From NCBI GenBank assembly GCA_016840425.1, contig JAEOSI010000019.1, positions 1 to 18,539 on the forward strand: a stretch of DNA of 18,539 nt, read 5' to 3'. A program made the position numbers and the translations under genes. This document shows, piece after piece, positions 104-9,441 of this stretch. The notes under the pieces were generated by a model that was not told the DNA's origin, did not search any database, and saw nothing but the letters and a program-made list of their open reading frames with translations. The stretch's first letter is position 1, and each line of letters opens with the position of its first letter. The DNA is from Candidatus Wukongarchaeum yapensis. Its GTDB lineage: Archaea; Asgardarchaeota; Wukongarchaeia; Wukongarchaeales; Wukongarchaeaceae.

Positions 104-2092
104 TTGGTTTTGTGTGTTTTTGAGGTTGTTCGAAAGGATGTTGGTGGTAGGTTTGGTAAGTTTGTGGTTAACGGAAAGGTTGTTAGGACTCCTGCTTTGT
201 TACCTGTTATTAATCCCAATCGTTTGATTGTTTCTCCACAGGAGTTAGAGAAGGATTTTGGGGCGGAGGTTTTGATTACTAATGCTTATATTATTTGGAG
301 GAATAAGGATTTGAGGGAGAGGGCGGAGGCTGAGGGTATTCACAAGTTTTTGGATTTTGGAGGGGTTGTTTTTACTGATAGTGGTGCTTATCAGGCGATG
401 AGGGGTAAGGAGTTGGAGGTTAGTAATCGGGAGATTGTTTTGTTTCAGGAGAAGATTAATCCTGATGTTGGGATTTTTTTGGATGCTCCTACGGGGGATG
501 TGGGTTATGTAGAGGCTGAGAGGACTGTTTTTGATACGATCGAGAGAGCTAAGGAGTGTAAGGAGTTAACTGGAGATTCTAAGATTTTTTGGGCTTGCCC
601 TGTTCAGGGGGGTGTTTATCCTGATCTTGTTTCTTACTGTGCTGAAGAGGTAGGTGGTTTGGGTTTTGATGTTTATTGTGTGGGTTCTTTGGTGACGCGT
701 CTTGAGGCTTATGAGTTTGGCGTGGTTTGTGAGCAGTTGTTGTCTGCGAGGTTTAGTTTGCCTTTTAATAGACCTTTGCATGGTTTTGGTATTGGATTGC
801 CTTCCTTTTTTTCTTTGTCTGTTGCTATTGGTTGTGATTTTTTTGATTCTGCTGCTTATGCTCTTTATGCTCAAAAGGGCAGATATATGAGTGTTCATGG
901 AACGTATTATTTGGCTGAGCTGGATGAATTCCCTTGCTCTTGCCCTCTTTGTGTTGATACTACTCCTGAGGAGGTTAGACGTTTTGATAAGGATGAGCGT
1001 GAGCGGTTTTTGGCTCGGCATAATCTTTATGTTAGTTTTGAGGAATTAAGGCTTGTTCGTCAGGCTATTCGTGAGGGATGGTTGTGGGAGTTGGTGCAGG
1101 AGCGTGCGAGGTCGCATCCTCGTTTGTTAGAGGCTTTTAATGTTTTTAAGCTGTATCCCGAGCTGGAACGTTTTGATCCTGTAACTAAGAAAAGCGCTTT
1201 TTTTTATTCTGGGCAGGAGTCTTTTTTGAGGACTGAAGTTAGTTCTTTTAGGCATCGTTTTTATGAAAATTATAGACCAGAAAAGGGAAGATCTTTGGTT
1301 GTTCTTCCTTATTCTGAGTCTAAGCCTTTTTCAAAATTTTATAATGTTTGGAATACTAAGGATATTCATTTTGCTGTTATGACTCCTTTTGTTTGCGTTC
1401 CTTTGGAACTTGAGAATGTTTATCCTGTTTCTCAGAATGTTTTTGTGCGAAACGATGTTTTGATTTATAAGGAAATGGAGGAGCAGTTTGGAGTGTTTTT
1501 AGATCGTTTTGGTAGTTATTATTATGATATCAAGGTGCTTTATGATGTTTCAAGTGTTAGGGGTTTTGTTAAATCTTTAAGACTAGAAAATAAGGGAAAG
1601 AAAGCGGGGGGTTCTGCATGGGATTATTTGTTGGATCTTAAGGGTTTGTTGAATTTTCAGTTTGGTTATCCTGCTGGTGATATTTTTGGGGAGAATGTTT
1701 TTGTTAGGTTGAGTAAGCGTACTGGTAAGATTAAGGAGATTTATGATGAAGAAAATCTTTTAGGGGTTTTAAGGATGGATGGACTCTTTATTCCTTCTGT
1801 TTATTGTGCTGAATTGTTGAAAAATGTTCTAGATTATCCGAAGAGACGTGTTGTGGTGGGTGATGATGAGGTGATTTCTTTTATAAGGGCTGGTCGTTCT
1901 GTTTTTGTGAAATTTGTTGAGAATTGTGATCCTAAGATACGTCCAAAGGAGGAAGTTTTAATTGTTGATAAAAGTGATCGTTTGGTAGGCGTGGGTACGT
2001 CGTTTCTTTCGGCTGAGGAGTTGTTAAGTTTTGATAGGGGGGTAGGTGTTAAAACAAGAAGTACTATTAGAGAGGAGAAAAAATCTTATTGA
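104..2092 (+). CDS. tgtA: Archaeosine tRNA-guanine(15) transglycosylase (ArcTGT) with C-terminal PUA domain
   Basis: Motifs RTPALLPVINP, FTDSGAYQ (catalytic Asp), VQGG, HGFG, FDSAAY, Zn site CSCPLC...ARHNL, C-terminal PUA-like region (RAGRSVFVKFV...IRPKEEVLIV...GVGVKTR). Exact TTG start uncertain. Confidence 0.95.
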   Translation: MVLCVFEVVRKDVGGRFGKFVVNGKVVRTPALLPVINPNRLIVSPQELEKDFGAEVLITNAYIIWRNKDLRERAEAEGIHKFLDFGGVVFTDSGAYQAMRGKELEVSNREIVLFQEKINPDVGIFLDAPTGDVGYVEAERTVFDTIERAKECKELTGDSKIFWACPVQGGVYPDLVSYCAEEVGGLGFDVYCVGSLVTRLEAYEFGVVCEQLLSARFSLPFNRPLHGFGIGLPSFFSLSVAIGCDFFDSAAYALYAQKGRYMSVHGTYYLAELDEFPCSCPLCVDTTPEEVRRFDKDERERFLARHNLYVSFEELRLVRQAIREGWLWELVQERARSHPRLLEAFNVFKLYPELERFDPVTKKSAFFYSGQESFLRTEVSSFRHRFYENYRPEKGRSLVVLPYSESKPFSKFYNVWNTKDIHFAVMTPFVCVPLELENVYPVSQNVFVRNDVLIYKEMEEQFGVFLDRFGSYYYDIKVLYDVSSVRGFVKSLRLENKGKKAGGSAWDYLLDLKGLLNFQFGYPAGDIFGENVFVRLSKRTGKIKEIYDEENLLGVLRMDGLFIPSVYCAELLKNVLDYPKRRVVVGDDEVISFIRAGRSVFVKFVENCDPKIRPKEEVLIVDKSDRLVGVGTSFLSAEELLSFDRGVGVKTRSTIREEKKSY

Positions 2093-2174
2093 CATTTAAT
2101 AATTAATTTGCATAATCGCAATACGCTTTTTAATTTTTCATGTTAGTTTTTTGTTGACAACTTTTTTTGTTTTT

Positions 2175-2687
2175 TTAAAAGTTGAACGGTCTTTGTCTTG
2201 TTTTTGTTCGGACAAATCCTCTCATGATTGAGGTTATTGGGAATTTTATGAAGATTGCTGTGACTCCTACTTGGAAAAATTGGGGGATTATTACCCTTAG
2301 TCTGTATTCGGATTCGTTGCTCCAGGATGTGGGTAATATGACGATTTCTTTGACTTCTTCTTTAGTTTTTTGGCATTTTATGGTTAGTTCTAGTCCGTCT
2401 ATTATTCTTTCGGGAAATCTTTCTTTGTTACACAGGATTACTAAGAGCTCTTTGCACCCTTCTTTTTTACCTGGGATTTGATTCCATTCTATTTTCTTTT
2501 CGAAGAAGGAACTTTTAAAGCAATTTTTAACGCCTTCTGTTAGGTCTTTAATCGTTTTTAAGGGTTTTTTATACTGTGAAAAAAATTTTTCCATCCTTCT
2601 ATGGCCATATAACTCTTTTAGTTTTTCTGCAAATTGCGGCGGTGGGTTTCTTATGTCGAATTCTTCAAAGGATTGCCACCAAGTCAT
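2175..2687 (-). CDS. Hypothetical protein (about 170 aa)
   Basis: Open frame from the track (2175..2702). ATG at 2687 follows an SD-like GGATGGTG (rc of 2693-2700) and is the more likely start. No family recognised. Confidence 0.6.
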   Translation of the reverse strand: MTWWQSFEEFDIRNPPPQFAEKLKELYGHRRMEKFFSQYKKPLKTIKDLTEGVKNCFKSSFFEKKIEWNQIPGKKEGCKELLVILCNKERFPERIIDGLELTIKCQKTKEEVKEIVILPTSWSNESEYRLRVIIPQFFQVGVTAIFIKFPITSIMRGFVRTKTRQRPFNF

Positions 2688-2726
2688 TAAAACACCATCC
2701 AAAAGAACAAAAAATAGGAAGAAATT

Positions 2727-2759
2727 GTTTATATTTTGTTTATATTTTGTTTATATTTT
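2727..2759. repeat. Three perfect tandem copies of the 11-mer GTTTATATTTT
   Basis: Read directly: units at 2727-2737, 2738-2748, 2749-2759. Confidence 0.9.
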
Positions 2760-2865
2760 TATACGTTTATTTTAAAAGTTAAGTCCTTATTCGCTTTTAA
2801 AATGGATAGAATGGTTTGAAAGGTAAAGTTTTATTTATTAAGTCCTTTATTAAATTTGAAAATAT

Positions 2866-3102
2866 ATGGAAAAAAAAGAGAATTATTATAAAGGTAAGAA
2901 AGCTGCAATGATTAGCGTGACCTTAGACATAATAGATCTTATCTCTATTATTTCTGGAATAATTTTGGATTCTCTCATTATTTGGCGGTGAGAAAAAGCT
3001 CTAGAACGAGGAAATACGACGGGAAAAATTGGCATAATCCTTGGAATCTTCGATATTAATCTGTTTATTTATTTCATTCATTATCCTGTGTTTTTTAGTT
3101 GA
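2866..3102 (+). pseudogene. Small two-TM membrane protein ORF interrupted by one in-frame TGA (2989-2991)
   Basis: Manual translation: MEKKENYYKGKKAAMISVTLDIIDLISIISGIILDSLIIWR*EKALERGNTTGKIGIILGIFDINLFIYFIHYPVFFS*. The hydrophobic-loop-hydrophobic pattern continues across the stop. Confidence 0.45.
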
Positions 3103-3118
3103 AAAATTTGAAGAAATT

Positions 3119-3154
3119 AAAGGGGGGAAATAAGGGTTATAACCCCCTTTTTTT
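3119..3154. terminator. GC-stem hairpin with T-tract between convergent ORFs (probable terminator)
   Basis: AAAGGGGG...CCCCCTTTTTTT; also contains the palindrome GGGTTATAACCC (3134-3145). Lies just past the ferredoxin stop and past the + strand membrane ORF. Confidence 0.55.
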
Positions 3155-3172
3155 GAGCTTCTTTCGTTTATT

Positions 3173-3394
3173 TTAACAGGAACTGTGTTCGATTGCTTCT
3201 GTGGGGCAAGCGTCTACGCATTTGCAGCATTCTGTGCAGTCGTCGATGTTTTTGGGTACCGCTTTTCCTTCTACAAGTTCGTATATGTCTTCAGGACAAA
3301 CATCTACACATTCAGCGTGACCTTCGCATTTGTCGTAATCGATCATTATATCAATATCTAACTCGTCTGAATGCCATGTTTTTACATTTGCCAT
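3173..3394 (-). CDS. Dicluster-type (2x[4Fe-4S]) ferredoxin
   Basis: CEGHAECVDVCP and CTECCKCVDACP motifs; SD GGTGAT at 3406-3401. Confidence 0.95.
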   Translation of the reverse strand: MANVKTWHSDELDIDIMIDYDKCEGHAECVDVCPEDIYELVEGKAVPKNIDDCTECCKCVDACPTEAIEHSSC

Positions 3395-5800: not shown

Positions 5801-6247
5801 TTAAATTAGGCTCATCATGTGTCCATAATAGCTTGGATCTATTTGAACTGCTTGTCTTAAACATTCTGAAGCTTCTTTATCCCTCCCCAATAGGTGGAGT
5901 GAGAGGCCTTTTGTAAACCATGCTTTTGCGCTTTTTAGGTCTTTTTCTAAGACTTTTTCCGCATGTTCTAATGCTTCTTTTGGTTTTCCCATGATCGCTA
6001 ACACTAGTCCTTTATTTGTTAATGCTTCAAGATTTTCTGGGTCTATTTCTAATACTTTGGAGAAATAGGGCAAAGCTTTTTTTTCTTTTCCCATGGCAAT
6101 TAACGTGTTGCCCTTGTTTATAAGAGCCTCTACCGAGTTTGAGTCTGTTTTTAACGCTTTGTCAAAACATTTTAGCGCATCTTTCATTTTTCCCAGTTCT
6201 TGGAATTCTAATCCTTTTCTGATCAATTCTTTAGTGCTTTCACTCAC
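5801..6247 (-). CDS. TPR protein (about 4 repeats)
   Basis: ALINKGNTL, ALTNKGLVL, AWFTKGLSL units; GTG start. Confidence 0.9.
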   Translation of the reverse strand: MSESTKELIRKGLEFQELGKMKDALKCFDKALKTDSNSVEALINKGNTLIAMGKEKKALPYFSKVLEIDPENLEALTNKGLVLAIMGKPKEALEHAEKVLEKDLKSAKAWFTKGLSLHLLGRDKEASECLRQAVQIDPSYYGHMMSLI

Positions 6248-6534
6248 TCTTTAAGCCTCTTTAATTTTTAATCTTTAAACAAGACCTTTTAGCTTATTTT
6301 TTGGCCTTTCATTTCCGATTAAATGCTTTTATTTTGAAAACCTAATCTAGTAATGTCTTTTAAACCCTCTTTTTTATTTTTTTAAAATTTAGCTTTCGTA
6401 AAATACGTTTTCAATTAAAAATTCCCTACTTTACTTTTATTTTTCGTATCCCAGTAATAAAAAAAACTTAGAAGTAAAAATTTAACCAAAATTTGGCTTG
6501 TTTTTAACATAGATTCCTTCCTATATCCCTCATC

Positions 6535-6718
6535 TGCGGGTTAGAAATTGATAGAGACTATGATTTCGCCTTTTTTGTAGTCTTGAAAAAAGGTTTAGAA
6601 GTGTTAGGGCAGGGCCTGTCCGAATTTACGCCTGCAGACAGAACCTCTACCGAGAGAAATCCCGGCAAGTTCAGTTGTTGAAACAGGGAACTCCTTCCGC
6701 TAGGGAGGAGTAGTTCAC
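6535..6718 (+). mobile_element. tnpB: IS200/IS605-family remnant: decayed tnpB 3' end plus transposon right end (…TAGTTCAC)
   Basis: Frame 6535-6681 reads CGLEIDRDYDFAFFVVLKKGLEVLGQGLSEFTPAD…, matching the TnpB C-terminal CG-x3-DRD-x-NA…GL…GQG-x2-EFTP pattern (RuvC-III). A shifted frame gives RQVQLLKQGTPSAREE* (6663-6713). The element ends in a hairpin plus TTCAC (6714-6718). No start codon or upstream TnpB body found. Confidence 0.85.
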
Positions 6719-6738
6719 CTATCTGCTCTATTGCTTGC
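6604..6738 (+). ncRNA. Putative TnpB reRNA (omegaRNA) scaffold plus predicted 3' guide
   Basis: Hairpins GGGCAG/CTGTCC (6607-6621), CTCT/AGAG (6645-6656), ACTCCTTCC/GGGAGGAGT (6690-6711, one G-U pair). Possible TGAA/TTCA and CCTG/CAGG long-range pairs. Guide = flank 6719-6738 CTATCTGCTCTATTGCTTGC. Ends and expression are inferred. Confidence 0.6.
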
Positions 6739-8148
6739 TTCGTATATTTTGAGTTTCAGCACCGTTTTTACTAATTTTTTATAAGTTAGTTCTTTGCTTG
6801 GAGATATGTGCCCCATGATTGCAACCGTTTTTGTAGTGAGAATTTTCCAAGGTTCAGGAGGCATATGAAAAATCGTACCATATCTTCTCTCATAATATTT
6901 TTCTTTTCCAAAGATCATCGTTGTTGGATAGTGGGTATATTGGTTAATGTAATAACTAGTGATAGAAGGTTTCTGGTTTAAGCTTATGAACTTTAACGTT
7001 TCTTGAAGCGAGGCCTCGTTTTCTCCTGGAAAGCCTAAAATAAGCGCGCATCCGATAGGCAACCCTATTTCTTCTGCTTTTTTAACTGTTTCTTCTGCTC
7101 TTTTGATGTAGTTTTCTGGGTCTCTTGTTTTTCCCATGATTTTCGCCATCCGCTTACTTACTCCGTCAATACCGAAGTCTACTTGGGCAAAATTTAGTTT
7201 TAGATATCTTTCTAAATCTTTATCGGATGTATAGTCAACCCGTGTCTCGCAATAAAATTCATTTTGAGTTCTTTCTTTCTCCAGAAGTTCTAAAAACTTA
7301 TTTTTCCATTCTTTTTTACAGCCAAAAAACGCGTCTGAAAAGTCGATCCTATCTGGCAAATATTCCTTAACTATCTCTCGAAGTATTTTTATCGCTTTTT
7401 TTGGTGAGAGTACTCGCCATTTTTTTGGCAAGTTTCCGCAAAATTTACAACCCTGGGGACATCCTCTGCTAACGATCACAGGGTAGCTTGTTTTACCTTT
7501 ATCTTTCAACGGTTCTGCAAGTCCCCAAAGGTATTCTATAGCGTTCATTTCCTCCTCAGTGAGAGGGGTACTATTTAAAGTGGTTGTGTTTTCTGGTCTT
7601 TTTCCCTTTTTCATTAGCTCATATAGTGCATGTTCTCCTTCTCCCCTGATAACATAATCAAAAACATGATACCTCTTCTTTTCTATCTCCTCTACATATT
7701 CAAAAATTTTTTCAGGAAACTTTATGTTTTCTCCTTTTAAAGTTCTTAGTTCAATGTTTGTTATGTCGTAGAAATTTTTCGGCATCGCTGTTGGGTGTAT
7801 TCCTCCTACAACAATCTTGGTTTCAGGCTTTAGTGCTCGCGTTATAAAACCTACCAATATTGAGGGAATATATGCCAACGTACTGTAACAAGATATTCCT
7901 ATCATGGAGTAGTTATTATTTTCCGTGAGAAGTTTTTCCAGATGATCGATTAAAATCCCTAGTTTTTTTAAAGGCTCATCAATTACAGCTATATTAGAAA
8001 ATTGATCGATTTTTATTTCTATGTCCTTGTAATGGTGTTTCAGGTAGGAGGCTATGTTTATTAATGCTATAGGAAAAAGCACTGGGCCAGTGTTTAAGTC
8101 TCCTCTTACCATCTTTGGAGGCTGTAAAAACAAGATTTTTTCGCTCAT
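6715..8148 (-). CDS. Cobalamin-binding radical SAM enzyme (class B methyltransferase-like)
   Basis: N-terminal B12-binding region (IGISCYS, IVVGGIHPT, DYVIRGEGE), SRGCPQGCKFC (CxxxCxxC), FYCETRVD, LILGFPGE. Confidence 0.92.
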   Translation of the reverse strand: MSEKILFLQPPKMVRGDLNTGPVLFPIALINIASYLKHHYKDIEIKIDQFSNIAVIDEPLKKLGILIDHLEKLLTENNNYSMIGISCYSTLAYIPSILVGFITRALKPETKIVVGGIHPTAMPKNFYDITNIELRTLKGENIKFPEKIFEYVEEIEKKRYHVFDYVIRGEGEHALYELMKKGKRPENTTTLNSTPLTEEEMNAIEYLWGLAEPLKDKGKTSYPVIVSRGCPQGCKFCGNLPKKWRVLSPKKAIKILREIVKEYLPDRIDFSDAFFGCKKEWKNKFLELLEKERTQNEFYCETRVDYTSDKDLERYLKLNFAQVDFGIDGVSKRMAKIMGKTRDPENYIKRAEETVKKAEEIGLPIGCALILGFPGENEASLQETLKFISLNQKPSITSYYINQYTHYPTTMIFGKEKYYERRYGTIFHMPPEPWKILTTKTVAIMGHISPSKELTYKKLVKTVLKLKIYEASNRADR

Positions 8149-8160
8149 GGAAACCGTCCC

Positions 8161-8502
8161 TTATTGCCCTTCTTCCCCCGCATGCACTATTTCTACGACT
8201 TTTTCCATCACTCCCGAAAGGTTTAAAAATTTAAGGATATTGTTTATTCTTTCAAGTTCTTTTCCCGTTATTTTTTCTGCTATTTTCCTTACCTTCTCGA
8301 TGAAAATATCGGAAGATTCCGATGTTTTCCTTATCATTTCAAAGATTTGAGGAAACTCGTTTTCAAAATTTTTTAAAAACGTTTCATATGCCTCTTTTTC
8401 TAAGTTTATGTTCTTATAATCTAATTCTAAAAAATCTATAAGTTCTTTAAAACTTAGACTTTTTGCGTCATATTTGTCCTCTATTTTGATCTTTAAAGGC
8501 AT
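8161..8502 (-). CDS. Hypothetical 113-aa protein, possibly PqqD/RRE-like or winged-helix
   Basis: SD-like GAGGG before the ATG; 12-nt gap to the radical SAM gene. The C-terminal half (QIFEMI…INNILKFLNLSGVME) loosely follows the PqqD helical pattern; the fold call is weak. Confidence 0.65.
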   Translation of the reverse strand: MPLKIKIEDKYDAKSLSFKELIDFLELDYKNINLEKEAYETFLKNFENEFPQIFEMIRKTSESSDIFIEKVRKIAEKITGKELERINNILKFLNLSGVMEKVVEIVHAGEEGQ

Positions 8503-8965: not shown

Positions 8966-9441
8966 CTATTTTATGAATTGCCTTAATCTTTCTAGACTTC
9001 TAATTTTATTCTTTTCATCTATTTTTGCTTTTTCAACAGCTCTTTCTAAGATTTTAGCTGTTTTTATCATATCCTTTGTTTTGACTGGGTAAAGCCTTCC
9101 TGATTTAGAGCCAAAAGCAAAGTTAAATTCTGAAGTTCTTGTGGCACTTTTTTGCTAGTTTTTCCCTTTCCTCCTACTAAAATCACACCATGGGTTTCAC
9201 GGTTTAAGGCTTCCCTAAGTGCTGCAGTAATAACAGTTGTTGAACCACTACTATCATATTCATAACCCAAAAGACATGCAAAGGCCTGAAACCAAAAAGG
9301 GTCATTGAAACATTCAAGGAGAAACTTTATTCCAAACTCTTCGGTCAAAACCTTACATGCCGCTCTTGCTAACTTAACCATGGTCAGAAAATATTTTGGG
9401 GCGGGACAACTAACTAACCGAAGATACCTTACCCTTTTCAA
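8966..9441 (-). pseudogene. DUF763-family gene with a large internal deletion and frameshift
   Basis: N-part 9067..9441 has DPFWFQAF…DSSGSTTV…GGKGK. A different frame, 9091..8966, reads YPVKTKDMIKTAKILERAVEKAKIDEKNKIRSLERLRQFIK*, resembling the DUF763 C-terminus. Confidence 0.78.

Follow-up and report, generated by a model that had tools for sequence, protein, structure and literature searches.

The radical SAM (rSAM) gene of Candidatus Wukongarchaeum yapensis analysed here ends within the terminus of a transposon, which raises the question of how a mobile element came to provide the stop codon of a host gene, and whether the gene was truncated, left unharmed or brought under a new control in the process. 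The gene lies in a stretch of 18,539 nt that was analysed at its full length (hereafter the window), and the features around its 3′ end are listed in Table 1. On the plus strand, the junction reads ...GGAGGAGTAGTTCAC up to position 6718 and then CTATCTGC..., and the initial annotation, in which the rSAM TGA is the complement of the TCA within the terminal TTCAC, was correct to the base. The protein, in which Pfam detects a B12-binding domain (PF02310) and a Radical_SAM domain (PF04055), ends in ...EASNRADR, followed by TGA in the ORF list. Its last sense codon straddles the junction, with two bases from the flank and the terminal base of the element in third position. An ORF of 113 aa with no Pfam family is located 12 nt upstream of the rSAM gene (8161-8502, minus strand), at a position conserved in a genome of the same genus (G001, the sister genome; L022 1147-1488). 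Another ORF of 124 aa (9067-9441, minus strand) covers no more of the 319-position DUF763 profile than positions 4-118 and could represent a truncated or split gene. The window was found to contain neither tRNA nor tmRNA genes.

Table 1. Features at and around the junction between the rSAM gene and the transposon right end (window coordinates).
Feature	Position	Strand	Description
Syntenic DNA shared with the empty-site genome	5702-6509		TPR gene 5801-6247 (minus strand) and its upstream region, 91% identical
Deletion junction or filler	6510-6533		Between conserved intergenic DNA and the remnant; from local alignments
Right-end remnant	6534-6718	+	5′-truncated tnpB-only IS200/IS605 element, 185 nt
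Right-end subterminal hairpin	6691-6710	+	8-bp stem (6691-6698/6703-6710), GCTA loop
Right-end cleavage pentanucleotide TTCAC	6714-6718	+	Complement GTGAA mimics TTAAA (complement of TTTAA) in register
rSAM gene	6715-8148	-	477 aa, intact; class-B (B12-binding) radical SAM; sole long ORF there
rSAM stop codon TGA	6715-6717	-	Complement of TCA in GTTCAC; lies wholly in the transposon right end
Last sense codon AGG (Arg)	6718-6720	-	Native codon AGT (Ser), from comparison of the gene ends
Guide-equivalent flank	6719-6738	+	Antisense to rSAM codons 471-477; what omega-RNA read-through would carry

When the window's assembly (2.16 Mb in 277 contigs, 92% complete) was searched with the unit 6534-6718, at least 16 copies were retrieved, with identities of 78-87%. 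They all terminate at the base corresponding to 6718 (...GAGTAGTTCAC), the flanks beyond being unrelated, and all copies whose flanks were printed end in ...GAG(T/C)(A/G)GTTCAC. Since at least 16 copies end so sharply next to unrelated flanks, position 6718 is the true end of the element. A strict pattern for the right end has 16 matches in the window's genome and four in the one other genome of the genus; it is absent from the 59 other genomes of the same phylum that were searched, and controls with the reversed pattern gave zero matches. In full copies, the 185-nt unit corresponds to the 3′ end of an ORF of 397-412 aa plus 15 nt. The 397-aa TnpB encoded by one of them (L002, 479-1672) contains PF01385, PF07282 and PF12323 (OrfB_IS605, Cas12f1-like TNB zinc-ribbon and HTH_OrfB_IS605) and aligns over its full length with the ISDra2 TnpB structures (PDB 8BF8, 8EX9/8EXA and 8H1J; E = 6e-48), its GxDxG, AVE and RD motifs lining up with the RuvC D/E/D triad. 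The left ends carry a hairpin similar to that of the right end, which starts right after TTTAA at seven independent junctions. The right-end hairpin, with a folding energy as DNA of -6.7 kcal/mol (z = -3.0), is retained in all copies, one of its pairs varying in a compensatory manner (CG/GC). The copies thus have imperfect subterminal hairpins at both ends and no terminal inverted repeats, and they are inserted 3′ of TTTAA without target-site duplication, as seen at the seven left ends and at two empty sites described below (rSAM and aIF5B). The element is therefore classified as a tnpB-only member of the IS200/IS605 family (IS1341-type).

Among the closest known systems is ISDra2, which shares the subterminal hairpins at both ends, the insertion 3′ of a fixed pentanucleotide without target duplication and, by prediction, a structured RNA overlapping the 3′ end of tnpB and the right end. 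ISDra2 uses TTGAT, whereas the present element combines the motif TTTAA with the right end TTCAC, and the copy in the window is a 185-nt remnant that has neither left end nor tnpB. The same TTTAA motif has been reported as the 5′ TAM of an archaeal IS200/IS605 TnpB, SisTnpB1 from Sulfolobus islandicus REY15A (bioRxiv 10.1101/2023.03.06.531077), to which our element is likened by this motif; the host of SisTnpB1 belongs to the Thermoproteota, that of the present element to the Asgard archaea.

Several members of this family in the window's genome depart from the common type. The tnpB copies on contigs C180, C19, C34 and C109 are similar to the others, but they have a different T-rich upstream region containing ...ATATATTCAC instead of the TTTAA-plus-hairpin left end of the copies on C137, C143, C5, C226 and C97. 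Only one clear Y1_Tnp gene is present in this 92%-complete MAG (L041 on contig C70, 1453-2432). The element to which it belongs has a different left end, and its partner TnpB-like ORF is only distantly related and runs off the contig end; because of the left end and the distant partner, we did not accept the C70 TnpA as the cognate transposase of the TTTAA subfamily, and no other candidate was identified. The same contig also carries an aIF2-alpha gene whose stop codon comes from a right-end remnant.

The state of the rSAM locus before the insertion could be read from the sister genome. There, the orthologue is 92% identical without gaps, has 477 aa and ends in ...NRAYS; its gene ends AAT AGA GCA TAT AGT TAA, compared with AAT AGA GCA GAT AG|G TGA in the window, so that TAA occupies the codon position of the TGA. 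Synteny between the two genomes breaks exactly at the element end: window positions 6798-6719 correspond to L022 2851-2930 and positions 6509-5702 to L022 3161-3967, the similarity stopping at 6509 and resuming at 6719. Read on the strand of the element, the empty site shows TTTAA directly abutting the guide-equivalent flank, which is unique in the window's genome and differs from the empty site by one mismatch. TTTAA accounts for only 0.4% of the positions in the window's genome, and its presence at seven left ends and at the two empty sites (rSAM and aIF5B) identifies it as the target (transposon-adjacent) motif. What had been put forward as a guess, a TTTAA TAM and an empty site reading GAT AGT TAA with a restored stop, is thus borne out, the orthologue reading TAT AGT TAA; the proposal that the element landed in the last codons and replaced the native stop agrees with the 477-aa orthologue and its ...NRAYS end. 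Between the two syntenic blocks, the window has 209 nt (6510-6718) where the sister genome has 230 nt (L022 2931-3160), and no copy of this 230-nt segment was found elsewhere in the window's genome.

Further empty sites were sought in the sister genome: the C137 site is occupied there, and neither the C59 flanks nor the HD gene was found. At the position of the full-length C137 element (L002), the sister genome carries an internally deleted derivative (G001:C29, 7492-9493), in which the left end and about 50 nt of tnpB are joined to the last approximately 100 nt. The shared position and the deleted derivative indicate that this insertion is older than the separation of the two genomes and that mini-elements arise in situ.

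Comparison of alleles addressed whether the insertion had damaged the gene. In a protein cluster at 90% identity, six other sequences from other assemblies end in ...NRADR (477 aa, 98-100% identical), three end in ...NRAYS (477 aa when full-length, one being partial) and three from a further lineage end in ...IRAQ or ...IRTQ (476 aa when full-length, one being partial). The native C-terminus was therefore never longer, the ...AYS and ...IRAQ/...IRTQ alleles having 476-477 aa, and the possibility of a truncated gene, raised in the initial annotation in case element-free orthologues should have a much longer C-terminus, is not supported. The ratio dN/dS between the window gene and the orthologue of the sister genome is 0.15. 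The rSAM gene is thus neither truncated nor decaying and evolves under purifying selection, and the ...ADR insertion allele is probably common to a species-level clade. At the DNA level, nothing was found for the other ...ADR alleles in two metagenome pattern scans, and a pattern scan of genome contigs matched only the empty-site MAG. Of the two fates initially suggested, tolerated or co-opted, the first is the one supported, by the unchanged length, the presence of the ...ADR ending in six other assemblies and the dN/dS of 0.15; co-option has no support, and the geometry on which it was based recurs elsewhere, as described below.

The reason why such an insertion may be harmless can be found in the two motifs of the element. 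The complement of TTTAA is T-TAA-A and that of the right-end TTCAC is G-TGA-A; at a site xxT TAA A, an element entering convergently cuts between the second and third bases of the last codon and converts T TAA into G TGA. As the TGA lands in register, the length of the ORF is kept and at most the last residue is altered. IStrons, in which an IS605-type element is fused to a group I intron (PMC4227781), offer another example of an IS200/IS605-type insertion that is harmless to the host gene. In IStrons, this is achieved by RNA splicing, whereas here no ribozyme is involved and the right end itself re-creates the stop in register.

The explanation that we prefer, with a probability of about 0.85, is that the locus is a tolerated and now immobile fossil of a tnpB-only IS200/IS605 insertion that came to lie on the rSAM stop codon. 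The ancestral gene ended in T-TAA-A, made up of the third base of a Ser codon, the stop TAA and the base after it. Insertion was convergent and took place between AG and T; the right end, G-TGA-AC on the gene strand, restored a stop at the same codon, and the replacement of Ser477 by Arg was the only forced change. The window now has no left end, lacks about 1.1 kb of tnpB and the TTTAA motif, and has also lost about 200-230 bp of native downstream DNA, including the native stop and 3′ UTR. A single later deletion probably removed all of these together: the left end, most of tnpB, TTTAA with the native T and TAA, and the native 3′ UTR. The order of these events, insertion and then deletion, we infer from one empty-site genome.

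The remnant comprises the last approximately 55 codons of tnpB, frameshifted in alignments with full copies (3 nt inserted, 2 nt deleted) and ending in a TAG at 6701-6703, together with the predicted omega-RNA scaffold, which overlaps this part of tnpB, and the right end. Similarity to full copies sets in at about 6522-6534, the start near 6522 resting on weak homology, and neither a tnpB ORF nor the left end of this copy is present in the window. With only one of the two ends, the window copy is a remnant of an IS200/IS605 member and not a functional one. Inspection of the junction for microhomology left the exact deletion breakpoint ambiguous, since the 24-nt filler aligns weakly both with host intergenic DNA (15/27) and with tnpB (20/25 with gaps). 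Such a remnant could probably neither be excised by TnpA nor be targeted by TnpB-omegaRNA. PATE-type mini-elements and stand-alone omega-RNAs are likewise devoid of genes and retain the right end and RNA scaffold, but PATEs keep both ends and stay mobilisable, whereas the remnant of the window, without left end and target motif, is a dead end. Expression of archaeal omega-RNAs has been documented (PMC12558985).

The arrangement seen at the rSAM gene is not unique in this genome. The aIF5B gene (607 aa, identified by Pfam) ends in AC|G TGA here and in AC|T TAA in the sister genome, the protein being unchanged, and the junctions read at ino1 and aIF2-alpha have the same stop geometry with right ends from other subfamilies. 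In a survey requiring a hairpin of -8 kcal/mol or stronger and a convergent ORF of at least 100 codons, nine of the 44 hairpin-preceded NAGTTCAC sites supply the TGA of the convergent ORF; adding one GGTTCAC end, about 10 of 45 right ends in the window's genome (about a fifth) provide stops. The corresponding control, NAGTTCAC sites without a hairpin, gave six of 125 (one-sided Fisher test, P = 0.004). As a null for the enrichment, about 2.5% of non-genic TTTAA sites were taken as stop sites, based on crude ORF calls, and binomial P values range from 1e-6 to 7e-3 for null values from 2.5 to 8% of non-genic TTTAA sites (P = 0.007 at 8%). Eight of the ten genes with element-supplied stops have Pfam domains, and a second radical SAM enzyme, the ATP synthase subunit F, a lipoate ligase and an HD hydrolase are found among them. 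Since about one in five right ends shows this junction geometry, the placement at the rSAM gene is no accident. In the sister genome, seven right ends were sampled, and no stop codon comes from any of them.

Among the ten, the case on C109 is equivocal, since the orthologue of the gene already ends in TTG TGA A without an element. In this pair (L005, G000:C109, 1119-1123, and L061, G001:C13, around 1497), the orthologue of a 187-aa gene has the five bases complementary to the right end and no element; it could be the footprint of an element loss, or the insertion could have occurred beside a TTCAC-like site. The aIF5B locus (L059, G000:C239) has an unusual structure of its own. A 691-nt insert (852-1542) is located between the aIF5B stop (gene 1539-3362, minus strand) and the TTTAA-side flank, upstream of rpS6e (327-791, minus strand). 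Only its last approximately 250 nt are tnpB and right end; the rest holds an ORF of 160 aa on the minus strand, without a Pfam family, and no recognisable left-end hairpin, and the adjoining motif is GTTAA, with one extra G compared with the TTTAA of the sister genome.

The recurrence could be taken further, by supposing that the TTTAA/TTCAC pair is an adapted device for docking on stop codons, a safe-harbour strategy in which the share of about 20% on stops exceeds what selective filtering of random TTTAA hits would leave. We regard this as unlikely. If true, host proteins would be spared, including essential ones like aIF5B and aIF2-alpha, and the guide would lie within slowly evolving coding sequence, making TnpB homing effective for longer. 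The paper on SisTnpB1, which has the same motif, does not discuss stop-codon docking (bioRxiv 10.1101/2023.03.06.531077), and no description of the stop-codon swap or of an enrichment on stops was found in the literature searched.

The position of the remnant also has consequences for RNA. As proposed in the initial annotation, the guide-equivalent flank is antisense to the 3′ end of the rSAM mRNA, and any rSAM transcript must enter the complement of the right-end hairpin, placing it in the 3′ UTR; both statements hold by geometry alone. The first run of at least five T is located about 140 nt past the rSAM stop, near 6572-6577, where the 3′ end of the rSAM mRNA is predicted, and this mRNA would now end in element-derived sequence. 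This arrangement could suggest a co-opted regulator, a putative plus-strand RNA from the remnant that would pair with the 3′ end or 3′ UTR of the rSAM mRNA and control its stability or the termination of its transcription. The complementarity is real, the allele persists in several assemblies, and the remnant keeps nearly all pairs of the consensus fold despite its lost reading frame: in the RNAalifold consensus of 11 copies (-45.8 kcal/mol), all but two pairs are retained in the window copy. However, the copies are only about 15% diverged, and recency alone predicts such a retention; only one pair of the consensus is clearly compensatory, the copies being close relatives. Minimum free energy folds of 6500-6740 are unexceptional on either strand (z = -1.2 and -1.8), and Rfam searches of 6200-6800, at gathering and permissive thresholds, gave nothing credible, no family matching the putative regulator. 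The same geometry arises automatically at about 10 unrelated genes, with no need for selection, and no sign of a regulatory role was seen for the remnant. The antisense arrangement is thus a by-product of the landing site, since it recurs at these unrelated genes, and we hold a regulatory function to be very improbable.

TldRs, the RNA-guided repressors derived from TnpB (bioRxiv 10.1101/2023.11.30.569447), likewise combine a TnpB-family guide RNA with a guide matching a host gene. TldRs are nuclease-dead, encoded beside their guide RNA and directed to promoters; at the present locus, by contrast, there is no adjacent protein gene, the TnpB of the family keeps its RuvC motifs, and the target is merely the flank of the insertion.

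Full-length tnpB genes with aligned RuvC motifs are present in the genome, and the putative omega-RNA of the remnant might be loaded in trans by their products as an orphan guide, cutting empty rSAM alleles so that repair copies the remnant allele. In favour of such a guide, the empty-site allele of the sister genome has TTTAA and matches the first 16 nt of the flank at 15 positions, and the scaffold of the remnant is 81-85% identical to those of the full copies, its fold being largely kept. Omega-RNAs are normally made from a tnpB mRNA context, which the remnant lacks, and, compared with intact copies, two pairs of its scaffold are broken and indels are present; there is also no target in the window's own genome, where no second match to the guide with TTTAA was found at up to three mismatches. 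With these points against it, we consider a role as orphan guide quite improbable. Under the preferred reading of a tolerated fossil, we assume that the RNA of the remnant has no function, and any plus-strand transcript of it, although antisense to the rSAM mRNA, would be a by-product.

The locus is therefore of a kind already known, the dead right end left by a TnpB element that targets TTTAA, in which the built-in stop swap and its recurrence are mildly interesting. It provides a reconstructed case of an IS200/IS605 element sitting on a gene without harm, from the empty site and its target motif to the two junctions and the deletion that followed. For annotation, it means that transposons are the source of some stop codons and 3′ UTRs in these Asgard genomes, and that 'orphan guide RNAs' in antisense to the ends of genes appear automatically, such that reading them as regulators needs expression data. 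At the level of the family, the enrichment on stop codons is a modest but testable point on the target choice, or the retention, of TnpB elements.
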